Notes under the pieces: model-generated
Seen by the model: only the letters and a program-made list of their open reading frames with translations
Database searches by the model: none
What the model was told of the DNA's origin: nothing
Program-made: the position numbers and the translations under genes
DNA from: a virus
Lineage: Duplodnaviria > Caudoviricetes
DNA length: 62,664 nucleotides
Strand: one strand, 5' to 3'
Virus record (IMG/VR): IMGVR_UViG_3300018719_000038
Location: 1 to 62,664 of that record
Shown here: positions 1,474-62,664 of the stretch, one piece after another
Numbering within the stretch: position 1 is the stretch's first letter
Layout: the number at the start of each line of letters is the position of its first letter

Positions 1474-2175
1474 TTACTTCGCTCCTTTCGAAATAAAAAC
1501 GGTATTGCTCGCGGCGTCCCATTTGACTTCTGCTCCGAGAGCTTCCGCAATGTCCCGCACCGGCAAGTACGTAACGCCGGAATCCACCACGCCGTCGCCG
1601 ATCTTCTTGCCGTCAACCTTAACGTTAACGATTACGTCTTTCTTCACGTCTTCCGCTCCTTTTGTCCGATTAATCCGCGCCATAGCCTCGTCAATCTGCG
1701 CCTGTGTCGGCCGCTTCCCGGCGCGGTATTGAGCCTTTGATAATCCGAATGTCATTTCGAAGTGCGGCATATCCTTGAACGTACGCCAATCGCCGCCCCA
1801 CGCAAATCCGAGCTTCTTGGCCTCCTCGACGACTTCGTTCCAGTCCGCAACGCCGTCGCGATCCCCGTCCAGCCGCGTATCCCACGATACCGACCGACCG
1901 TCCCCGGTTAGCAGCGCGAAGTCGATCGCAACGCCGAAGTTATGGTTCGAGTAGCCGCCGCGTGCATTGGTAACGATCTTCCCCGGCTTCGTTCGGCCCT
2001 GCGCATATAAAGCGTCTTGCTCCGCGATGGTCCGCAGGCCCTGCGTAATTACGATTGGGACTCCTCGCGCATAGCAGCGGTCGATTAGCGCCGAGGCCGC
2101 CGCAGCAACAACCGGAAGAAGCCCGCGCAATTTGGCCGCGGACTTGGATCGTACATATTCGAGTGTTAACGTCAT
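1474..2175 (-). CDS. Endolysin, M15 family peptidase (L-Ala-D-Glu peptidase-like) with C-terminal copper-amine-oxidase-N-like domain
   Basis: GLRTIAEQDALYAQGRT, SNHNFGVAIDF, WGGDW..FKDMPHFE motifs; C-terminal TYLPVRDIAEALGAEVKWD. Confidence 0.9.
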   Translation of the reverse strand: MTLTLEYVRSKSAAKLRGLLPVVAAAASALIDRCYARGVPIVITQGLRTIAEQDALYAQGRTKPGKIVTNARGGYSNHNFGVAIDFALLTGDGRSVSWDTRLDGDRDGVADWNEVVEEAKKLGFAWGGDWRTFKDMPHFEMTFGLSKAQYRAGKRPTQAQIDEAMARINRTKGAEDVKKDVIVNVKVDGKKIGDGVVDSGVTYLPVRDIAEALGAEVKWDAASNTVFISKGAK

Positions 2176-2496
2176 TTAAGCCGCATCCTTTCCGTTTATA
2201 ATCGCCTTGATATCGTGTACATCCGAAGCCAGTCCGTCATATTGCCGCGCAAGTGTCTCGAACCGGTCCGTCAGACCCTCCGCCAATCGCATCAGGCGGT
2301 CCTCGCGCGCAGTTGCTTCCGCATGCATCCGTTCGTTCTGCGCCTTAGCCTCCGCACTGATTCGTTCTTCCCTTTCGCGAGCCTCCGTTGACATGCGGCG
2401 CATCTCCCGCCAAAGCACCCACGCGAGGATACCGGCCGCGACCGCAAATATTCCGTTCTTCGCAAGCTCCGCAAATATCGTTTGTTCCATCGACAC
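2176..2496 (-). CDS. BhlA/UviB-like holin-like protein
   Basis: NGIFAV TM helix followed by 'REERI/REDRL' coiled coil; directly upstream of endolysin. Confidence 0.7.
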   Translation of the reverse strand: MSMEQTIFAELAKNGIFAVAAGILAWVLWREMRRMSTEAREREERISAEAKAQNERMHAEATAREDRLMRLAEGLTDRFETLARQYDGLASDVHDIKAIINGKDAA

Positions 2497-2538
2497 ACCC
2501 CGTGTAAATAAAAATATCCGCTGTCCTTACGGAGCGGA

Positions 2539-2826
2539 TTACGTTGTTTCCGTGATTTCTTCGTAATTTGCGAGCAGTTCGTTGTAGTCGCGAACGTAGA
2601 CGTCTCCCTTGTCGTCCTTACAGACAAACTGGCCCATTTTCACGACGAGGAGCTTTTCGGGTCGCTTGATAATCCCGGCCCTGACGTTTCCGTCTGCATC
2701 GTAATCAACAGTAGCTGGCAGACCGGTGAATTTGATAATCTTCATAATTGTTTCTTTCTCGCCATCCGCAAACTCAACCGCCTCAACACGGTCCCTCGAC
2801 TGAAATATTCTGATCATCTTCAACAC
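2539..2826 (-). CDS. Hypothetical protein following tail fiber
   Basis: 95-aa ORF with VEAVEF motif; hairpin terminator downstream (~2516-2539). Confidence 0.65.
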   Translation of the reverse strand: MLKMIRIFQSRDRVEAVEFADGEKETIMKIIKFTGLPATVDYDADGNVRAGIIKRPEKLLVVKMGQFVCKDDKGDVYVRDYNELLANYEEITETT

Positions 2827-3742
2827 CCTTCATTTTTTTTTTTTTATTTATACGCTTCCAGTCAAATGAATACTTCCACGTATCAGTTGTATAACTATTT
2901 GGGATCACCTGGAAACCATCAGTGTTTATACGTCCGGTAATCTGAAAATTTTGTGAATCTTTTAATAGAGGTGCGGTGCTTGTTTTTCCAGAAGAGCCAT
3001 AAACATACACACCGCCGTAAGTAGTGCTGTCACTTATATTCTGTATCGTCATGTCTGTTAACACGAACAATGATTGCCGATCTAGGTTGTTGTTATATAA
3101 AAGCGTTGCCTTAACACGAACAAGGCTTGGCGTAAACGATAGTCCTGCTATTATCAGTTTTGGGTCATTTCCAGGTCGTTGAACGTTGCCGCTAGCGTAC
3201 TTTTTTCCTTGGTAAATCTGCCCGATCTTCTGCGCCAAAACTGGAAATGTATCGCTCCCTGATGCCGGTACTCCTTTGCCAGTGATGGCGGAAGCGATCG
3301 TGTTTTTCCCATCACTGACATTTGTAAAAAGCTCGTTAATCGCGGCGACCGTGTTAGTTTTCGCTCCGGTGAGCAGCGATGCCAACGGGCCGACGGCGTT
3401 GCTGGCCGCGACTGCTGCGGTGTTCGCTGCGTTTGCCGTTGACTGTGCCGCAGAGGCCGCGCTATTAGCCGCATTAGCAGTGCTTTTTGCATCCGCCGCC
3501 GCATCATAGGCTGTTTTAACAGCCTTCGAGGTTGCCGCCGTCGTCTCGCTGGCACTGTTTGTGGCGCTGGATAGCTGTACGATACCCTTCTGCGCCGTTG
3601 TAGCGTCCGGCACGGTAATCTCGCCCAGTGCCTCCGTTACCGACGAGTCTACCGCCTCCGCGAGTGCGTTCATATCCCGCGGCACATCGGCCGTCATTGT
3701 TCCGTCAATTAGCGGAAGCTTTAAATTAGCTGTTTGCGCCAT
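2783..3742 (-). CDS. Tail fiber / receptor-binding protein (C-terminus probably frameshifted; natural end likely DWEAYK* at 2844)
   Basis: MAQTANLKLP N-terminus, DATTAQKGIVQLSSATNS tail-fiber repeat, VSDGKNTIASAITGKGV segment, AT-rich variable C-terminal domain. Confidence 0.85.
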   Translation of the reverse strand: MAQTANLKLPLIDGTMTADVPRDMNALAEAVDSSVTEALGEITVPDATTAQKGIVQLSSATNSASETTAATSKAVKTAYDAAADAKSTANAANSAASAAQSTANAANTAAVAASNAVGPLASLLTGAKTNTVAAINELFTNVSDGKNTIASAITGKGVPASGSDTFPVLAQKIGQIYQGKKYASGNVQRPGNDPKLIIAGLSFTPSLVRVKATLLYNNNLDRQSLFVLTDMTIQNISDSTTYGGVYVYGSSGKTSTAPLLKDSQNFQITGRINTDGFQVIPNSYTTDTWKYSFDWKRINKKKKMKGVEDDQNISVEGPC

Positions 3743-3745
3743 ATA

Positions 3746-4318
3746 TTACGTCAACCCCCGATTATAAAGTTCGCTATACGTCTTCCCCGTCGCTGCGACC
3801 TCGCCGTACGTCTGGCCGCTGCCTGCAAGCTCCTCGTATGTGTAAAAGCGGAATACGTACTCAATCGCCATATGTGCCGGCGTTATGTCGCGCACGGCCG
3901 CCATCAACTCGTCGATTTGGTCCGGGACCCCGTATTGACTTACGAACGTAACGACAATCGTATAATCCGCGGCCCGGTTCGCGACCTCAACGTCACCGTT
4001 CGCATACGCCGACGCAACGCTGTCGATAAGTTCCGCCGTTACCGCACCGACGCCGCGCAGCCGGCCGAGGAGGATTTCGCGCCGTTGTGCGTATGTCTTC
4101 GTTTCATCTGTCGGGATTCCAAATATCCGCTCCCATCGCTCAAGCCCCCACGTTGCGGTCTCGATGAAAAACTGCGAGAGAACGTCGCCGATCCCGGCGT
4201 TAAGCTTCGCGAGTTCCTCCGCCTCGCGGTCGATGATGTTCGTTGCTACCGGCATCTCCTCGTAATATTTCGGGAAATAATCGTGCATGTCGCGTTTAAT
4301 TCCCAGTAGCGTCCTCAT
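3746..4318 (-). CDS. Baseplate/tail protein, XkdU/YmfQ (DUF2313)-like
   Basis: QFFIETATWGLERWERIFGI and PAHM motifs; follows baseplate J. Confidence 0.85.
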   Translation of the reverse strand: MRTLLGIKRDMHDYFPKYYEEMPVATNIIDREAEELAKLNAGIGDVLSQFFIETATWGLERWERIFGIPTDETKTYAQRREILLGRLRGVGAVTAELIDSVASAYANGDVEVANRAADYTIVVTFVSQYGVPDQIDELMAAVRDITPAHMAIEYVFRFYTYEELAGSGQTYGEVAATGKTYSELYNRGLT

Positions 4319-5397
4319 GCCGACGTCACCGCCACATTTGAAAGCACCGCAACCTCTCCGTCCGCGATCGAAATGTTTCCGGTCGCTCCGTTAAGCGTCA
4401 GATTTTCGTAGTCAATTACGGGAGGGATATCGAGGATCACGTTAGCAATCCGCGTAATCCGCACAAGCGGATCGGTGAACGCAAGCGTCCGTAAGTATGC
4501 GCGCACGCCCGTTTCAATCTGCGCCTTTACCTCCGCGACGGTAGCGCCGGGGGCGAGCGTAACTTCGACCAAAATGTTAATCGGCACCTCGACCGCGCCG
4601 GCTACCGTACAGGCCGCGCCAATAGGGGCGACTCCCTTGCCGGTTCCATCCTTCGTCGGGTCGATGTACGTCTGGACTGCGGAAACAACCGATGCATCCG
4701 GCGCGGTCTTGTCGTCGTCGAGTAGTACGACTTTTACGGTGCCGGGCCCGTTCCAAACCGGATATACCTTCGCATCCGAAACGCCGGGTACTTCCAGCGC
4801 CCATTGACGATATTGATTCGCATTTCCCGATGTGGCTGGCCGCTGGGCCCTCTCGTAATAACGCGCCAATAAAGAAGCGTCTGACTCCGCATCGACGCCC
4901 CCTTCGAAAAACTTCGCGTTGGTTACAGCCACGATTCCGACAAGGTCGCCGAGCAGCGTAGTAATCACGCCGGCCCCAACGTTTCCGGCCGCCCCCGCGT
5001 CCTGCGCCTCCGCCGCGACAGTAACCGATCCGCTGGCGATCGTTGCCTCCGCCGTCGTTACGAAATAGACCGGATTGTCGCCGCCAGTTGATGCGAGTGT
5101 TCCACGCGGAATCACCGTACCGTCCGGTCCCGAAAAGGTAAGCGAGCCGACCGCTTTGACTGCAGGCTTCCGCGTCAATCCGTATTCCTTCGCCCGCATA
5201 TCGAGGTAAGCGCCGTATGTCGTATCCGCAAACCCGAACGCGAGCACGTTGTCGAGTTCGGAGTATGCTAACGTCAGTTCAATCGCGGCCGGCGAAAGCA
5301 AGTCGAACGTAACGGAGCCCTGCCGCTTATCAATGTCCGCCGGTGACGCGTTGAGCATCCGGTCAAGTATCGCGGCTTTCGTTTGGTCCTCGTACAT
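4315..5397 (-). CDS. Baseplate J-like protein (XkdT-like)
   Basis: DKRQGS, GGVDAESDASL, SGNANQYRQWALEVPGV, WNGPGTVKV motifs. Confidence 0.92.
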   Translation of the reverse strand: MYEDQTKAAILDRMLNASPADIDKRQGSVTFDLLSPAAIELTLAYSELDNVLAFGFADTTYGAYLDMRAKEYGLTRKPAVKAVGSLTFSGPDGTVIPRGTLASTGGDNPVYFVTTAEATIASGSVTVAAEAQDAGAAGNVGAGVITTLLGDLVGIVAVTNAKFFEGGVDAESDASLLARYYERAQRPATSGNANQYRQWALEVPGVSDAKVYPVWNGPGTVKVVLLDDDKTAPDASVVSAVQTYIDPTKDGTGKGVAPIGAACTVAGAVEVPINILVEVTLAPGATVAEVKAQIETGVRAYLRTLAFTDPLVRITRIANVILDIPPVIDYENLTLNGATGNISIADGEVAVLSNVAVTSA

Positions 5398-41619: not shown

Positions 41620-42672
41620 CTACGCGGCCTCCTTCGCAATTTCTCTTTCCGCGCGAATCCGGTAGATGTCCGCAAGTGCTTCCGCCGGGCCGCGCTTCTT
41701 CCAGTCCGGCAGGCTCGACCGTTGGATTGCCGAGACGTGGCGCTCTATTTCCGCGAGCTCGTCCGGCGACAGCGACAGCGCACACGCCGTTTTGAAATTG
41801 TTGAACGTCCACTTGTCGACATCGAGTTTCGGAGGCTTGCCCGCTTCGGCCGCCGCAACGATCCCGGCGAAATGGTCGAGAACTTCCGCGCGCATCTCGT
41901 CCGTAATGTGTAGGCCGAACGCCGCAATGTCCGGATTCTTTTCGAACTCGTCCGGCGTCATCATCCACGACTTTTTCGACGCGTTGACGTAGAGGATAAT
42001 GTAATAGTCGATCGGTTCCGCGTCAGTTCCGTACATAACCGAGTAGCAGACGCATTGCTTAACGTGGTCCTCTTTCGGTCCCTTGCGCGTTGAGTATTCG
42101 GACGTTTGCGAGTACGTAGTTTGTTTGCTTTTGATCTCCAAACCGACGCGAACGGTCCGCCCGAGTTCCGGAACGAATACGCGCATGATTCCGTCGCAGG
42201 TTCCGTATAGCGCGAAGACTTTTCCGGCATGCTCAACGATTTTGTTCAACTTCGCGAAGTCCTCAAACATCGGCTCGCCGTGATCGTTCCGCACGAAGCT
42301 AAATTCCGGATTCTCTCCGTAATGCCGAGCGTAGTGGCGTTCCGCGAACAAAATATCGCGCTGAATCGTATCGCCGATTGCGGTTCCGATTCGAGTCCAG
42401 CGCCCTTGAAATGCCGGCCGGTCCTCGTTGTCCTTTTTCGCGCCGCGCATTTTCTCGTACAGGCTGCGCGGATCGGCGTTGGCAGATGACGGAGAGAAAT
42501 ACGGCAGCCCCCGCGCCGGCCATACTTTCCGCGACTTGTCCGATAAGACCATGCTATACCAGTGATGGATTTGCGAGTCGAGCGTATCATCGTAGACTTC
42601 CGGGGCCGCGTGCCAGTTGTTAAGGAATTGCGTAAATTGTTGCGCGATTTTATCTGCGATAAGTTGTGTAAT
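41620..42672 (-). CDS. PD-(D/E)XK exonuclease (probable ATT start)
   Basis: FSPSS, GTCDGI, LEIKS, Q..CY; frame extends 40 codons to ATT behind GGAGG. Confidence 0.75.
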   Translation of the reverse strand: MTQLIADKIAQQFTQFLNNWHAAPEVYDDTLDSQIHHWYSMVLSDKSRKVWPARGLPYFSPSSANADPRSLYEKMRGAKKDNEDRPAFQGRWTRIGTAIGDTIQRDILFAERHYARHYGENPEFSFVRNDHGEPMFEDFAKLNKIVEHAGKVFALYGTCDGIMRVFVPELGRTVRVGLEIKSKQTTYSQTSEYSTRKGPKEDHVKQCVCYSVMYGTDAEPIDYYIILYVNASKKSWMMTPDEFEKNPDIAAFGLHITDEMRAEVLDHFAGIVAAAEAGKPPKLDVDKWTFNNFKTACALSLSPDELAEIERHVSAIQRSSLPDWKKRGPAEALADIYRIRAEREIAKEAA

Positions 42673-43900: not shown

Positions 43901-44162
43901 ATTTCGCCATCTCCTTCGCTATTAATTCGTGAATCTTGCGGCCGGGGACGCTCTTATGGCGCGGATACCATATCATCGAAAAATCGAACGCGTCCGGAAT
44001 ATCTCGGCCATCGACGCAACGCTCGACGTATTCGCGGACGTCATCGGCGAGTGTTCGCGGCTCCCATCCGCAGATACAGCCGTGATCACCGTATTCGTCC
44101 GCAAGTGTGCGGAGTTGGCGTCGGCATTGCGGACAGGTGTACGCTGCGGTTTCGCGTTCCAT
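43887..44162 (-). CDS. Zn-finger hypothetical protein
   Basis: CPQC..LADEYGDHGCICGW. Confidence 0.65.
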   Translation of the reverse strand: MERETAAYTCPQCRRQLRTLADEYGDHGCICGWEPRTLADDVREYVERCVDGRDIPDAFDFSMIWYPRHKSVPGRKIHELIAKEMAKYERI

Positions 44163-45055
44163 TTATGCGGCCTCCTCTTCGTTAATGATCGCCTTAACTT
44201 CGGTCGGCAGGCGCTTCCCAATTGCTTGCCTAATCGCCTTTTCCTCGTAGCCGGCCGGAAGTGAGTCGGATTCCTCTTTTATAAGGTCATCGTAAACGCG
44301 GCCGCCAAGATTGCGGAGAATGACGCCCATATCCTCAAGTCCGAAGTCTTCCGGAATCAGCGCCTCATCAACGAGTTTCCGTAGCAGTTTATCAACCCGC
44401 CCCCGCGTCATGAACGTTTTGACGAACGAAGCTTCCGGGGACTCCGGTGCGTTCGGATCGCGCGGGGCTTTTTGCGGCTGCACTTCGCGGAACCCTTCCG
44501 ATACCAACTTAACGAACGTCTGCTTGCCGAAGCGGTCACGGTACGCGACATTCTTTACGACGATGCCTTCGCCTCCGTCCGCCTGCGTGGCGAAAGCCGA
44601 CCGACCGACGAGCGTCTGTAAATGTTCGAACGAATGGTACGGCCCGGAGTAAAGAACCGGCGCGACCATCAAGCCCAAACGGGCAGCCTCCGCGATGACA
44701 AAGTCGGTGGGCGCGTACGAATCCTCGATCTCGTCGTAGATATCGAACAGATAGAACCCGTTTGCGTGCGCCCCATAATCGACTTTATGTTAACCAGCCA
44801 CTCGCCGTAGTAGATTACGTTAGGCAAAAGGCGGCTCGGGTCGATTTGTCGCGTCCACTCGTAAAACCCGCGAAGATTATTTTCCGGAGAGAGGCGCGTA
44901 TTGCGTGAAAAGGCCAGAACTTCCGCCGGCTCCTCCAACGATGCATTAGCTCCGTCCAGTTTCTCGTAAACAGTGATATAGTCGCCTTCCTTTACAGCGC
45001 CGACTGTTTCGCGGTGCCCCATTCGTAAAATATCCGCGTATTTCCGCTGTTCCAA
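44163..45055 (-). pseudogene. Rnl2-family RNA ligase with a single-base frameshift at ~44790 (pseudogene or sequencing error)
   Basis: EKLDGANAS, YGEW in frame 1; FYLFDI, EGIVVK, FVKLV in frame 2; adding one A restores WLVKHKVDY. Confidence 0.8.
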
Positions 45056-46147
45056 TTACGCCGCCTCCCCGTATTTATTCGCAAACTCCGGCAGCGGCCG
45101 GTTATTCGCGTAATCCCATTCGTCCGGAGCGTATTCCATCATCCAGCGTTTTTGGATGACGACGTCTGTTGTAAGCGGAACGCTCAACTCCGTCGTTTTC
45201 GTCATCACATCGTAAATCAGCGCGATCGTCTCCGGTGACACCTGCTCGTCCGGAATGCTGACGATGATTTCATCGTGAATGGACGCGTTAAACTCCCAGC
45301 CGCGTTCCCGGCAGATTTGCGCGATACGAATGCCGATCCGCTTCAAAATGTCCGCGCCAGTCCCTTGAATGACGGCGTTAAATGCCGCGCGTTCCCAATA
45401 GCCGACGAGGCCGCGTTTCTCCGCCAATACGTCGATTTCGTCTTGAATCGCGAGCAGCTTGCGTTCGTCGGCCGGAGACAGCTTCGTTTTGTTCCGCAGC
45501 GCCTTCCGCTCGGTATAGAGCCGGATCAACCGCTGCTCGTTCTTGGCTTGCGCGGCGGCCGTCGCCTTGTAATCCGGAAACCGGCGCTTCCTGCCAAACA
45601 GCGTCTCGACATATCCGTGTTGCCTCATGTACTCTCGAATGTCCGCGACCATCGTCTTAAACGACGGGAACGTGCGGTCGAAGTTCTCGAAAAACATGTG
45701 CGCGACGTCTTCCGTCACGTTCATTTTCTTCGCGAACGATTTCGGTGACTGGTCGTAAGATACCGCGAGCTGGCCGGTTTTCATCATCTTCCGCGGCTGA
45801 AATGTGTGCGTCGGATCGTACGCCTTGTCGACGCAATACTCTTCCGCCAGGCCGAACGTCATCATCGCCATCGTCGTATAAAGGTCAACGCCATCGACGA
45901 AGATCTGGCGCATAGAATTATCGCCGTACTTCGTGTACATGATGTGCGACATGATACGCGGCTCAATCTGGCCGAGGTCTGCGCCGACGAACGTAAAGCC
46001 CGGCCGCGGAACAATTTGGTTGCGGACGCGGTTCCCTGCGCCCTTTGACGGAAGGTTCTGGGCGTTCAATCCGCGTTGGACTTTTCGACTGTCGGCGATA
46101 AGCTTGCGGACGATTGCGTGGTAGTTGGCATCAGTTATTGCGACCAA
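45056..46147 (-). CDS. polA: Family A DNA polymerase, C-terminal part (motifs A, B, C)
   Basis: NAQNLP, ADLGQIEPR, RKMMKTGQLAVSY, TLFGRKR, NAVIQGTGAD, IHDE. Confidence 0.92.
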   Translation of the reverse strand: MVAITDANYHAIVRKLIADSRKVQRGLNAQNLPSKGAGNRVRNQIVPRPGFTFVGADLGQIEPRIMSHIMYTKYGDNSMRQIFVDGVDLYTTMAMMTFGLAEEYCVDKAYDPTHTFQPRKMMKTGQLAVSYDQSPKSFAKKMNVTEDVAHMFFENFDRTFPSFKTMVADIREYMRQHGYVETLFGRKRRFPDYKATAAAQAKNEQRLIRLYTERKALRNKTKLSPADERKLLAIQDEIDVLAEKRGLVGYWERAAFNAVIQGTGADILKRIGIRIAQICRERGWEFNASIHDEIIVSIPDEQVSPETIALIYDVMTKTTELSVPLTTDVVIQKRWMMEYAPDEWDYANNRPLPEFANKYGEAA

Positions 46148-46412
46148 ATGGATTACCGTCCTTATCGTAAATTGGAGACAGGCCCCCTACACCGTTCGAA
46201 GTCGCGGCAGAACTCAGTGCTGCGTAATAAATTCCCGTCTCTTTGTCTCTTACTGTTGTTATCGTGGTTGTTGTATCTATAAAGTCCCTACTTACAAACT
46301 CAAATCGTGAATTTGACGACGCTTTTTCTTTAACTCTTTCTGTATTCTCACCGCAAGCGGTAAGCCCAATCAGTAACAGCAGCGCTGCTATCCCGAAGAG
46401 TGTTTTTTTCAT
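46131..46412 (-). CDS. Lipoprotein inserted between the polymerase halves
   Basis: MKKTLFGIAALLLLIGLTAC lipobox; DKETGIYY, PIYDKDG; ATGA overlap with upstream stop. Confidence 0.85.
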   Translation of the reverse strand: MKKTLFGIAALLLLIGLTACGENTERVKEKASSNSRFEFVSRDFIDTTTTITTVRDKETGIYYAALSSAATSNGVGGLSPIYDKDGNPFGRNN

Positions 46413-48244
46413 ACACATTCCTCCGTTTCAAATTCGCGTAATATATCGATTGGACGGCCGCTGTATCCCGACGAACTATACCTCCCGGTTGCCGTACCGC
46501 CCGCCTTGAACTCCGAATGAATCCGCCCGTCCACTTCGAGCGCGTGCGGAATCTTCGAAACGTACGTGTTGAGGAGTTTTTCGTACGCGGCCACGGTCGC
46601 AAGCGGTTTGAGCGCCTCTTCCTCGTCGTAGTAAACCGTAAGGATTTCGGCGGCTGTACTCCGCGACTTGCCACGCTTGAATTGCGAAGTCCTATCGCGT
46701 ATCCCGAGATGATCGTAAATCAAATACGCCAGGTGGTTCCCGTTCGTGATCGAAAATTCTTGCGTAAACAAGGGCGCATGACCCTCGGTGGCCGGCGCTA
46801 GATTCATGGCCTCCGCTTCGAGCTCGGCCAATCGCGCGACCGCATTCGTATACTTCTTGAGCGTAGTTTTGCCGGCCGCCTCGCATTCCGCAATGATCGC
46901 GCGTTGCTTCGCCTGGGCTTCCGCGTTCCTTTCGATCCGCCGGCGCTGCTTCTCGCACCAGTCCGCGATCTTTGTCGCGTTTAGAGTTCGGTCCATTATC
47001 CGCACAAACTCCGCGTCGATGTTGTATGCGGTCATTACGTCGGCCCTTGCCTGTTCGAGCAACGGTTTAAACTCCGCTTCGAGTTGCGCCAGCCCTTCGA
47101 GGTCTACGCAGAATCCGCACCGCGCCAGGAATACGTCGGTCTCCGGTAACTTCGAGTCAATAAGCGCGTAGCATTCGAGTAGCTTGCCGGAACCATCTGC
47201 CGAGGCCGCACGCTTCATTTGCTCAAATTGCCATTTCGTCAGCTTCCATCCGTAAAGTACGTCCTTGATCGCGTAGATTCCGACCAACTCGACGCTGAAC
47301 GGTGCCGGCGAACGGTTGCCGAACATGTCTTCGAATGTAAAGACGGGACCCTCGATGCCGAAATGGCGGCCGTACTTCGCGACAAGCGGCTTCAAGCCGT
47401 ACGCTTCTTCGTGCTCATTAAGCAAGTTCATCGCGTCGAGCGAGTCCCATACGCATCCGCGGATCTCGTATCCGTCCTTGATCGCAACGTGAAGGTCATA
47501 CCGCGCCGACCCCATGTGGAACGACTTGCCGTGCGCCGGTTGCGAAAGGTACGGCGAGATTGCCGCCAGCACTTTCGACCGCGTGAGTTGCTTGTCGCCC
47601 GCCTTATGCGCATTGGTATCGTCCAGGAACTCAAATCCCGGCTCGCCGCGCATGTCTACGTGGCCGTACGGAAGGTAATAACCTTCGTTAAGCAGCGGTA
47701 GCCATACGGAATATCCGATCGAAACGTCAATATACGTATCGACGCCGGTACCCTCGAAGTCATTCGCGGTCATTGATTTTACGCCGAGTTTCACCCACCG
47801 GTCCGGCCATTCTCGCATCTGCCGCCGACATTCCTCGCGTAACCGTTCCACAAACGCAGGAAGCGCGGAGTCGTCCGTAATTATGTAGAAGTTCGCCGGC
47901 TTCGTCCGCAACGTCTCCGCAACTCTTTCCGCGCGTTCCTGGCGCTCGCGTTCCGCAAGCAACCGCTCGCCTGCCGCGATGACGTCCGCCTTTGTTACGG
48001 CTCCGCTTTCGCGCGCCTTTCCGCCGGAGCGGAGAGACAGAAGCTTGCCCGTTGCTTCCGTCTCCTTTACGATTTCGACGAGTTGGCGCTCGCGATCCGT
48101 AAGACTCATGCGGCTGATTCGTTCGATCGCTTCGGCCTGCGTTTCCTCTGCGGCCTTCTTGCGTTTGGCTGCGTCCTTAACGCGATCGGCAGCGTCTGCG
48201 GCGTCGGTCGGCGAGCGTAAGTTGAGCGTTAATTTAACGTCCAA
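46409..48244 (-). CDS. polA: Family A DNA polymerase, N-terminal part (3'-5' exonuclease, thumb)
   Basis: NDFEGTG, RYDL, YAIKDV, KLLNTY, DGRIHSEF, TATGRYSS. Confidence 0.9.
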   Translation of the reverse strand: MDVKLTLNLRSPTDAADAADRVKDAAKRKKAAEETQAEAIERISRMSLTDRERQLVEIVKETEATGKLLSLRSGGKARESGAVTKADVIAAGERLLAERERQERAERVAETLRTKPANFYIITDDSALPAFVERLREECRRQMREWPDRWVKLGVKSMTANDFEGTGVDTYIDVSIGYSVWLPLLNEGYYLPYGHVDMRGEPGFEFLDDTNAHKAGDKQLTRSKVLAAISPYLSQPAHGKSFHMGSARYDLHVAIKDGYEIRGCVWDSLDAMNLLNEHEEAYGLKPLVAKYGRHFGIEGPVFTFEDMFGNRSPAPFSVELVGIYAIKDVLYGWKLTKWQFEQMKRAASADGSGKLLECYALIDSKLPETDVFLARCGFCVDLEGLAQLEAEFKPLLEQARADVMTAYNIDAEFVRIMDRTLNATKIADWCEKQRRRIERNAEAQAKQRAIIAECEAAGKTTLKKYTNAVARLAELEAEAMNLAPATEGHAPLFTQEFSITNGNHLAYLIYDHLGIRDRTSQFKRGKSRSTAAEILTVYYDEEEALKPLATVAAYEKLLNTYVSKIPHALEVDGRIHSEFKAGGTATGRYSSSGYSGRPIDILREFETEECV

Positions 48245-48265
48245 GATGCGTCACCTCCTGCGTAA

Positions 48266-49429
48266 TTAGGCAGCGGCCTGTTCGCGATCGAAGCGCTGTT
48301 CGACCGGGACGATGAGGTTTACATGATGGTGATACTTCAGCTTCCCTGCTACTTTGACGGGGATGCTACTTACGTTCCCGCTTGCGGCCGCCTCTCCGAC
48401 GGTTCCTACCGGGTGTCCATACTCATCCTTGTACGTTTGTACGATATCTCCGGCCCTAATTTCGCCGACTTTCCGCCCGATTGCCGCCCATTTCTCAATC
48501 TCCGCGGCTTCCTCTGCGCTGAGTTTTTCGAGTTGCTCCGGTTTGGCGTAGCCCACCTCGTGGTCGTCACCTGCGATTTCAACACGCTCTCCGGAGTGGT
48601 ACGAAGTCTTCGGGTCGGATACCGTATAGATTTTACCGGTCTTGAGCCCGAGCAATGGATGCTCTCCGCCTCCGTTAATCAGCCGAACCTTATCGCCTTT
48701 CGCGAACTGGTTGCGTGGATCGAGCGCTTCTTTGGCAGCAGCGACTTCGGCTTCCGTGGCGCGGACGAAACGATGCACGAACATTCCGTATTTACGGCCG
48801 TCCAGCGTTTTAACGTCGATTATCGTATTAGAACCGAATGAGCCCCCGCCCCAATTGTCGTTAATAACTTCGCCAATATCGCCGACCTCCGCGATACTTT
48901 TTGCACCGTCCGCGTCAACCACTTTTACGCAATCCCCGACTTTAAATCGAACTTGCGCCAGGAACTCCGCCTCGGTTGCCGGCTGCAGGTGGTACGACCG
49001 TAAGTAGTTGCCGCGTGTTCCGTCCGCACGCTCCCCTACATATAGAATCCTGTTGCCACGATCTTCCGGCCCTTCTACGATTTTGATAACCGAACCGATC
49101 TCGTAAGCATGGTCATTATCGTTTGGCCCGACAACCTTCGCATAGTCCCCGACGGTCAAGCGCTTCGGCTTCGCGGGCTGCGCAGATTCTTCGATTTTTT
49201 CGTAGACTTCGTATTCTACTTTCCCGCCGTCAAAATCGTCGCCGTCCTCGTCTTCAAAATGCGGATCGCCCGCACCGTCTACGCGAGTTACCTCGTAAAA
49301 TGCGCCTTCAATAACGTAATCATAATCGTCATTATCCGTAATCTTGAGCACGTCACCGACCGCGGCTTTCCGGTCAACCTTCCGGTATTTAACGCCTTCG
49401 ATTTCGATTTCTACATTCAATTTCGCCAT
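48266..49429 (-). CDS. Tandem SH3/KOW-like repeat protein
   Basis: About five [FL].VGD..K[VI]V units separated by ATEAE linkers. Confidence 0.7.
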   Translation of the reverse strand: MAKLNVEIEIEGVKYRKVDRKAAVGDVLKITDNDDYDYVIEGAFYEVTRVDGAGDPHFEDEDGDDFDGGKVEYEVYEKIEESAQPAKPKRLTVGDYAKVVGPNDNDHAYEIGSVIKIVEGPEDRGNRILYVGERADGTRGNYLRSYHLQPATEAEFLAQVRFKVGDCVKVVDADGAKSIAEVGDIGEVINDNWGGGSFGSNTIIDVKTLDGRKYGMFVHRFVRATEAEVAAAKEALDPRNQFAKGDKVRLINGGGEHPLLGLKTGKIYTVSDPKTSYHSGERVEIAGDDHEVGYAKPEQLEKLSAEEAAEIEKWAAIGRKVGEIRAGDIVQTYKDEYGHPVGTVGEAAASGNVSSIPVKVAGKLKYHHHVNLIVPVEQRFDREQAAA

Positions 49430-61713: not shown

Positions 61714-62664
61714 CTACAATTTCTTTATTCGTTTTTTATCCGAAATCAATCGGTTCAACGGTGACGCCTTTGTGTGGTCCGCCTTCAGATCATCGTCAAG
61801 CAGAGCAACATACCGCTGCGTCATTTTCATGTCCGCGTGACCGAGCGTCCGTTGCAACGCAAAGGCAGACGCGCCACCACGCAAAAACTCCAATGCGAAA
61901 GCATGACGCAAGTCGTACGGCCGAATGTGTACGCCAAGCTTTTTACTGTACAGCTCGATCCGATCGCCCCAGGTGTGTCGCGTCATTCTTCCGCCGTCCC
62001 ACGTACAAAATATCGGCACATCCGGCCCCCACTCCGCAAGCCGTACGGCAAGCACGCGTTTGATCGCTTTTGCGGTATGATCCGAAATCGGCAGCGTCCG
62101 GGATACGCGAGTCTTCGCCACCTTAGCGGTGATGTAAATTTCGCATGCCTGCGGATTGAAATCGACAGGAACGAGTGATAGTGCTTCCTTCGGCCGGATT
62201 CCGGAATCCAGCGTTAGAAGTATAAGCGCATAGTCGCGCAGCCCCGCAAACGTCTTTTGGTCGGGCAGTTCCATCAGCTCACGTAAAATTTCCGCATCGA
62301 TATTAACGACACGACCTTCGTCCTTCCGTTTCTTAATACCCGCGATCGGATTCTCCGATATGTACCCCTCTTTTACGCACCAGTTAAGAAATGTACGCAG
62401 ATAGACAAGGCGGTTATTAAACGTTGGGGGCGCGATATCTTCCTCCGCCAAATGCGCGTACGCCGACTTTTTCAGTTCCTCCGAGCTTGTCCACGCGTTA
62501 GGAAACCGCTTGAAAAAGAGACGAACGTGCTTATCGTAGTCCTCGCGAGTCTGATCGGCCAACCCCTGCGTTTTCTTCCACGTCAGGAAGCCGCCAAGGG
62601 CCTCCGCCCAGCCGCGAAATTGCTCCGGAACCTCATCTGGAATCCTCGTTATTCTCCGTGCCAT
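61714..62664 (-). CDS. int: Tyrosine recombinase / integrase
   Basis: SGIRPKE, KT..SR, PYDLRHAFA, LGHAD..MTQRY. Confidence 0.93.
   Translation of the reverse strand: MARRITRIPDEVPEQFRGWAEALGGFLTWKKTQGLADQTREDYDKHVRLFFKRFPNAWTSSEELKKSAYAHLAEEDIAPPTFNNRLVYLRTFLNWCVKEGYISENPIAGIKKRKDEGRVVNIDAEILRELMELPDQKTFAGLRDYALILLTLDSGIRPKEALSLVPVDFNPQACEIYITAKVAKTRVSRTLPISDHTAKAIKRVLAVRLAEWGPDVPIFCTWDGGRMTRHTWGDRIELYSKKLGVHIRPYDLRHAFALEFLRGGASAFALQRTLGHADMKMTQRYVALLDDDLKADHTKASPLNRLISDKKRIKKL

Follow-up and report, generated by a model that had tools for sequence, protein, structure and literature searches.

A family A DNA polymerase encoded in two genes, with an exchangeable and probably HNH-founded cargo socket at the junction

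The window analysed here is the complete 62,664-bp provirus record IMGVR_UViG_3300018719_000038 from IMG/VR (Duplodnaviria; Caudoviricetes), from a temperate Paenibacillus phage. At positions 45056–48244 its family A DNA polymerase (PolA) is encoded by two genes which flank a small lipoprotein gene. We consider it very probable that this is a working two-gene polymerase whose junction is an exchangeable socket for cargo genes, probably founded by an HNH endonuclease. The replicative polymerase would be made as two polypeptides that assemble non-covalently, an N-subunit carrying the exonuclease domain, the thumb and the TGR motif, and a C-subunit carrying the NLQNIP motif, palm and fingers. The break lies in a surface loop within a ~35-residue insert that is restricted to this lineage; the two halves of this insert would form a C-terminal tail on the N-subunit (N-tail) and an N-terminal head on the C-subunit (C-head), both in the modelled interface. 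A GGAGG sequence in the last tail codons would drive translation of the next gene, creating a ready-made expression socket which, in related phages and prophages, is empty or occupied by one of at least 13 unrelated small genes, and recombination in the conserved polymerase sequences on either side would allow these cassettes to be swapped. As with other “genes in pieces”, the most likely origin of the split is that a free-standing gene for an HNH homing endonuclease inserted here, and putative homologues of it still hold the slot in three lineages.

Both polymerase genes lie on the minus strand, which carries nearly all genes of the provirus. The N-half gene (46409–48244, minus strand, 611 aa) covers the N-terminal region, a putative 3′–5′ exonuclease-type domain (D162/E164), the thumb, the TGR motif and a 20-aa tail, and the C-half gene (45056–46147, minus strand, 363 aa, TTG start) covers the NAQNLP motif, palm, fingers and motifs A, B and C. 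Both match the Pfam family DNA_pol_A above its cut-off of 34.3 bits, the N-half at profile positions 18–124 (44.4 bits) and the C-half at 127–380 (154.4 bits, E = 5e-45); as these matches are complementary, the two open reading frames (ORFs) are complementary pieces of one polymerase domain. The break falls inside that domain, between the TGR and NLQNIP motifs and after profile position 124. The cargo gene (46131–46412, minus strand) encodes a 93-aa lipoprotein when counted from its second ATG at 46412, or 95 aa for the whole ORF (46131–46418). Its ATG overlaps the N-half stop codon as ATGA and its 3′ end overlaps the C-half TTG start by 17 nt (46131–46147), while the 261 nt between the halves are translated ORF throughout. 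This arrangement, a PolA split within motif 2 around a lipobox gene that overlaps both neighbours, had been proposed in the original prediction from the sequence alone, and the ORFs, the complementary DNA_pol_A matches, the DUF6440 match of the lipoprotein and both overlaps agree with it.

The catalytic motifs are all intact, as had been claimed. In an alignment of 27 N-halves the residues T586, G587 and R588 of the TGR motif are invariant, as are D162, E164, D250, Y324 and D328, putative acidic exonuclease residues among them. In an alignment of 28 C-halves the same is true of D57 (motif A), R119, K123 and Y131 (motif B) and H291-D292-E293 (motif C), the naming of motifs following a study of phage PolAs (PMC10201439) and common usage. 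No Pfam exonuclease match was found in the N-half of this phage at E ≤ 0.01; contiguous outgroup polymerases carry PF01612, and an alpha/beta domain is visible in the model of a contiguous relative, L034. The Leu noted in the original prediction is present as L127, four residues after K123 and invariant in 28 of 28 rows, and by our own motif-B register we take it to be the equivalent of E. coli Pol I residue 762. Leu at position 762 has been linked with temperate phages (PMC6302109), the association on which the original prediction drew.

The two genes carry extra sequence on either side of the break. The N-half ends with TATGRYSS followed by SGYSGRPIDILREFETEECV and the stop codon, this N-tail (residues 592–611, 46412–46471, minus strand) being homologous in 31 split loci, and the C-half begins with (M)VAITDANYHAIVRKLIADSRKVQRGL followed by NAQNLP, this C-head (residues 1–27, 46067–46147, minus strand) containing a predicted helix at about residues 8–19. 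The 20 aa of the tail and the 27 aa of the head are homologous to the first and second halves of a long insert found in contiguous enzymes of the same lineage. Measured from the first T of TxTGR to the P of NLQNIP, the spacing is 17 residues in ordinary PolAs among the search matches, which have lower identity to the C-half of this phage, 26–37 residues in contiguous relatives with 40–49% identity to it, and 52–54 residues in nine contiguous protein clusters with 55–65% identity. The long insert is also present in one contiguous genomic locus, L034 from Sporosarcina. The tails are missing from contiguous outgroups (17–37 aa spacing) and present as an internal insert in 10 contiguous in-group forms. 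When L034 is aligned with Klentaq, its 35 extra residues are placed exactly between positions 287 and 288 of the chain. The L034 protein was modelled with AlphaFold2 (mean pLDDT 86.6); in this model the insert is a loop and then a well-defined helix (595–604), the counterpart of the C-head helix, in a block with pLDDT of ~92, and the other loci, when aligned with it, have their split point in the modelled loop just ahead of this helix.

Relatives were gathered by tblastn and locus fetching, giving 37 loci from two annotated Paenibacillus larvae phages, 22 IMG/VR contigs and 13 GTDB genomes (Paenibacillus, Brevibacillus, Neobacillus, Sporosarcina, Terribacillus and Seinonella). Six were duplicates, leaving 32 distinct loci including this phage. 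The gene is split at the same place, with homologous tails, in 31 of the 32 and contiguous in one, and the N-halves of 36 related loci are 63–80% identical to that of this phage. A protein search limited to 199–636 aa returned 202 clusters at E ≤ 1e-30; the matches listed (120 of the 202) are all C-halves of 318–392 aa, from Paenibacillus, Brevibacillus, Neobacillus, Bacillus and Cytobacillus, and an xDxN[YFR] head motif is found in 114 of 117 split C-halves that keep their N-terminus. A search for longer proteins found only the nine contiguous long-insert clusters (P0007–P0015). Ratios of non-synonymous to synonymous substitution rates (dN/dS) against 12 relatives are 0.075–0.17 for the N-half and 0.056–0.115 for the C-half. 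For the tail and head segments they are 0.00–0.21 (N-tail 0.00–0.15) where dS was computable and not saturated, which indicates that the tails evolve as protein. On these comparisons, both halves and both tails are under purifying selection. The relatives thus show what had been anticipated for them, a conserved split with conserved appendages and an intervening gene that varies.

Cargo is present at the junction in 23 loci and belongs to 13 unrelated families, with a further eight loci free of cargo, in agreement with the original proposal that the split point acts as a slot for accessory genes. The families comprise DUF7296 (six loci: L001, L002, L005, L010, L012 and L015), HNH_3 endonucleases (three loci: L014, L023 and L029), a 58-aa membrane protein (three loci), a 53-aa protein (two loci), an N6/N4 DNA methylase (N6_N4_Mtase, one locus) and eight more with one locus each, including the lipoprotein of this phage; the DUF7296, HNH_3 and methylase assignments are from Pfam. 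DUF7296 proteins, ~105–110 aa with a CPCCGD-type cysteine motif, are the commonest cargo (6 of 23 cargo loci) and occur in three separate polymerase clades. The distribution of cargo is discordant with the polymerase tree, as the near-identical sisters L005/L007 and L004/L008 hold different genes and the 58-aa membrane protein occurs in separate clades.

The borders of the cassettes are sharp. The nucleotide sequences of L005 and L007 are homologous (90.9%) as far as position 3670 and again from 4004, and those of L004 and L008 (93.5%) as far as 3817 and again from 4007; sister phages lose their homology within a few bases of the N-half stop codon and regain it where the C-half starts. In L004 and L008 the N-halves (~1990–3810) are 97.0% identical and the C-halves (4001–5130) 83.8% identical, about four standard deviations off the trend. 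Judged from this mosaic pattern, recombination at the junction reassorts polymerase halves between phages as well as cargo.

The N-tail also appears to carry the signal for expression of whatever gene stands in the slot. In this phage a GGAGG ribosome-binding site lies within the tail codons T-E-E (46420–46424, minus strand), 7 nt before the lipoprotein ATG at 46412. In 25 of 31 distinct rows the same GGAGG stands among the final 30 coding bases of the N-half, usually with a start codon 6–9 nt later. As it sits in the conserved end of the tail (E-T-E-G/E), the tail codons double as the ribosome-binding site for any gene placed behind them. For the C-half, this site is supplied by each cargo gene, for example by the 58-aa membrane protein, which ends in GGAGGTTGA. 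In the eight cargo-free loci the stop and start codons overlap or abut in different frames, with GGAGG 7–13 nt before the C-half start (GGGGG in L009). A scan of 44900–48500 found no promoter- or terminator-like sites in the junction, counts being at or below shuffled expectation, and the three genes look like one transcription unit.

The cargo of this phage begins with MKKTLFGIAALLLLIGLTAC, a signal peptide ending in the lipobox L-T-A-C. Lipoboxes follow the pattern [LVI][ASTVI][GAS]C. The protein matches Pfam DUF6440 (30.7 bits, cut-off 26.5) and PHROG 8801 (E = 4.4e-12), and homologues with 75–77% identity are found in two Paenibacillus protein clusters, the 77% identical one being named “LptM family lipoprotein” by one source. 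No match was obtained in the phage collection, and a search of genome contigs gave a single weak and irrelevant match (L039). The lipoprotein is likely an accessory (moron-type) gene.

Whether the two halves could assemble was addressed by complex modelling of both full-length proteins, using our own alignments of 27 and 28 rows. The complex scored 0.83, compared with 0.00 for the best of three controls; the pass mark is reached by 58 of 80 solved complexes and by 2 of 110 mismatched pairs. At least 94% of the contacts are common to the runs, and the partner pLDDT is at least 85. The modelled interface includes N-tail residues 584–607 and C-head residues 1–33. In the model the C-head helix leans on the exonuclease domain, contacting N-half residues 166–176 and 193–204; next to the D162/E164 exonuclease motif, residues 166, 173 and 196 of the N-half are in contact with residues 13 and 16 of the C-head. 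The modelling supports binding of the halves, short of demonstrating it, and would be consistent with a heterodimer in which the tails take part. The earlier idea that the added peptides zip the halves together gains support at the level of the model, where both tails lie in the interface.

The history of the split was reconstructed from a FastTree phylogeny of 169 rows based on the region from NLQN onward. These rows comprise 117 split clusters, 32 loci including this phage, nine contiguous clusters and 11 short-insert outgroups; some genes are present twice (P0127 is the protein of this phage itself), three truncated gene calls were excluded and L023 is a long branch. The 10 contiguous long-insert rows (L034 and P0007–P0015) are nested deep inside 148 split rows, and Fitch parsimony gives a split ancestor with one split and four fusions, compared with 12 independent splits if fusion is forbidden. 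As the ~35 extra residues occur only in the clade with the split and the ancestor is reconstructed as split, the appendages were by parsimony gained, as originally proposed. On this tree the contiguous long-insert forms look like re-fusions of split genes, and in a comparison of L021 and L018 with L034 a fusion of the overlapping frames would need, by our count, a 1-nt indel. On the stem branch, insert and split may have arisen in either order. A reading based on the contiguous L034 gene, in which the appendages were simply older than the split, was dropped when the contiguous forms proved to be nested within the split radiation on the larger tree.

A rival history, which we think rather unlikely, is that the ~35-aa insert evolved in a contiguous polymerase and that many independent splits then occurred in its permissive loop, in which case the contiguous forms would be relics and the tails would not have been gained at the split. 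The ten contiguous forms do carry the whole insert unbroken, it is ordered in the L034 model, and contiguous outgroups already have shorter inserts (26–37 aa spacing), giving a graded series. Furthermore, several inner nodes in the mixed clade are weakly supported (0.0–0.7). However, 12 independent splits would be needed for contiguous rows that are nested among split ones, and each time a functional split must acquire stop codon, ribosome-binding site and start codon simultaneously, where a fusion needs only a small indel. The deepest branch, L023, is itself split and holds an HNH gene.

On balance we lean towards a split caused by an HNH endonuclease on the stem of the clade, with the tails arising with it or just before, the HNH gene later being lost or replaced and the halves occasionally re-fused. 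HNH_3 genes are the sole cargo class with known site-specific self-insertion, and those in the slot are homologous (L014/L029 53% identity, L014/L023 38%) and occupy it in both the deepest branch and the main clade. There are also published precedents for this route, including split genes that were left without an endonuclease (PMC3045599; bioRxiv 10.1101/2022.08.31.505936). More tentatively, the socket may have been founded by such a selfish endonuclease, the tails born of the split may now form an ordered loop and helix docking on the exonuclease domain, and at least four lineages may have re-fused their genes while keeping the 35-residue insert. A split without any homing endonuclease, for example by a frameshift or stop mutation in the loop, with HNH genes arriving later as cargo, seems doubtful to us, even though eight loci are split without any cargo and cargo, such as DUF7296 and the 58-aa membrane protein, moves across lineages.

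Several observations weigh against a founding endonuclease or against a fully functional two-part enzyme. HNH genes occur in only 3 of 32 distinct loci and hence are perhaps one more cargo and not the founder, and the slot of this phage holds a lipoprotein gene instead of an endonuclease. The ribosome-binding site of the C-half is weak (AAGGA, 11 nt before the TTG start), so that the C-half must rely for its expression on being coupled to the lipoprotein ORF. The favourable complex model may reflect mere likeness to solved single-chain PolA structures. Finally, the N-half of one IMG/VR relative (L015:1899–3671) has an in-frame stop at codon 223, which shows that some copies of the split polymerase decay.

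Restoration of a single polypeptide by RNA splicing, protein splicing or ribosomal bypass is very unlikely. Such processes are known from comparable genes, with group I introns in phage PolA genes elsewhere (PMC3428280) and a 50-nt gap across which T4 gene 60 is read (bioRxiv 10.1101/2022.08.31.505936). Here, however, the gap is a translated ORF, in relatives it is replaced by 160–684 nt of unrelated coding sequence, and in the cargo-free loci, where the frames overlap, the C-half has a ribosome-binding site and start codon of its own. The tails, which evolve as protein, have their homologue in an internal segment of the contiguous enzymes and not in intein blocks. No Rfam family was detected in 44000–49000 (cmscan, E ≤ 10) beyond a chance snoRNA match of 13.3 bits, and no Hint or intein Pfam domain in either half, so the absence of intein ends and of an intron core noted in the original prediction extends to these profile searches. 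An intein or split intein was likewise rejected as a candidate, as the head ends in RGL before NAQNLP, without HN and a nucleophile. A dead polymerase gene broken by a foreign insertion is hardly credible, despite the foreign ORF within a conserved motif and a frameshifted RNA ligase gene alongside, as 31 of the 32 distinct loci share this arrangement with at least another 117 protein clusters, dN/dS is ~0.1 on both halves, the catalytic residues are invariant and isolated, plaque-forming Paenibacillus larvae phages carry it, which together exclude a pseudogene and the simple insertional disruption, with contiguous close relatives, that the original prediction had named as its counter-case.

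The polymerase genes lie in a wider replication module. Upstream are a DnaC-like loader, a DnaB-like helicase and a primase, and an integrase gene is located at 61714–62664. Directly upstream of the polymerase a 387-aa protein (48266–49429, minus strand) has two stretches that match PHROG 15694 (unknown function) and by eye looks internally repeated. Just downstream, an RNA ligase gene (Pfam RNA_ligase, 44163–45055, minus strand) is divided into two ORFs (44669–45055 and 44163–44678) by a 1-nt deletion relative to the intact L007 homologue, right after GGTTAA at ~44790; this could be a frameshifted pseudogene, a sequencing error or recoding. In the replication/recombination module a 310-aa protein (41620–42552, minus strand) matches PHROG 1706, annotated as “CRISPR/Cas system associated” (E = 2.5e-57). 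Among the relatives L030, L035, L026 and L027 and protein P0132, several are on contigs of 60–69 kb, with one record titled “Circ” and another of very high coverage, and one protein carries a plasmid label. Some members of the family may be phage-plasmids or replicating phage; the phage studied here has an integrase and is classed as a provirus.

A family A polymerase cut inside its catalytic domain is thus still kept by a large group of temperate phages and prophages of Bacillota. It provides a blueprint from nature for PolA enzymes made in two pieces, and a system in which the rescue of fragmented enzymes by tails can be examined. The junction is also a precise hot spot for the swapping of accessory genes, including a methylase, membrane proteins, a lipoprotein and DUF7296, and hence a good place to seek genes related to host interaction or defence. 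If the proposed history is true, fragmentation by a homing endonuclease followed by healing would be a route to structured insertions in conserved enzymes, and the contiguous relatives which carry the tails as an insert make it testable whether scars of selfish elements seed protein insertions. When Halcyonevirus-type phages are annotated, their two “DNA polymerase” genes should be treated as encoding a single enzyme.

The kind of arrangement described here is known. The closest precedent, by analogy, is the ribonucleotide reductase of Aeromonas phage Aeh1, split into NrdA-a and NrdA-b by the homing endonuclease mobE, where the tails that the insertion created are essential (Crona et al. 2011, PMC3045599), and the mechanism is that of “genes in pieces”. 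In both cases an essential replication-related enzyme is encoded by two separately translated genes divided at a conserved site, a free-standing HNH-type endonuclease gene is associated with the split, the pieces carry C- and N-terminal tails missing from unsplit enzymes (here from the contiguous outgroups), and no RNA or protein splicing is involved. Two separately translated ORFs under selection are found in this phage, as in Aeh1, and an endonuclease between the pieces is found only in relatives (L014, L023 and L029). Our case differs in that the enzyme is PolA, the slot mostly holds non-endonuclease cargo (13 families) or is empty, the role of the tails, shown to be essential in Aeh1, is a modelled one, and putatively re-fused descendants keep the tails as an insert. 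In T4-type phages topoisomerase II is split into gp39 and gp60 by the MobA element (Manning & Atkins, bioRxiv 10.1101/2022.08.31.505936). There, as here, a mobile endonuclease element is associated with repeated insertion at one place in a replication gene; however, the host gene and phage group differ and MobA brings a 50-nt translational bypass, of which no sign was seen here.

Split PolAs have also been described before. In S-SBP1-like T7-type cyanophages an exonuclease/polymerase split was called the first among PolAs by its authors (Czernecki et al. 2023, PMC10201439). Like ours, this polymerase is encoded by two adjacent genes and is predicted to act as two interacting components, but its split lies at the boundary between the exonuclease and polymerase domains, whereas here it lies inside the polymerase domain and the active-site cleft would be formed by two chains. 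In the OM43 phages MEP401 and MEP402 the DNA polymerase is likewise encoded by two genes, which are separated by a small ORF of unknown function, and the authors left the possibility of an intron open (PMC10580990); these phages belong to an unrelated, Zobellviridae-like group and the likeness is one of gene layout. The Paenibacillus larvae phages of Halcyonevirus have the same gene family (63–73% identity), split site and tails, but differ in cargo (DUF7296), and their GenBank records already annotate the polymerase as two genes. Both genes are listed in a table of PMC6070908, in passages that make no comment on the split, and the passages of PMC11860570 that concern these phages mention DNA polymerase once in passing and discuss no split. 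Literature searches, with supplementary gene tables outside their coverage, found no paper analysing this PolA split. New features compared with these systems are the position of the break within the catalytic domain, how large the clade is, a socket that has a ribosome-binding site built in, the wide range of cargo and the apparently re-fused descendants.

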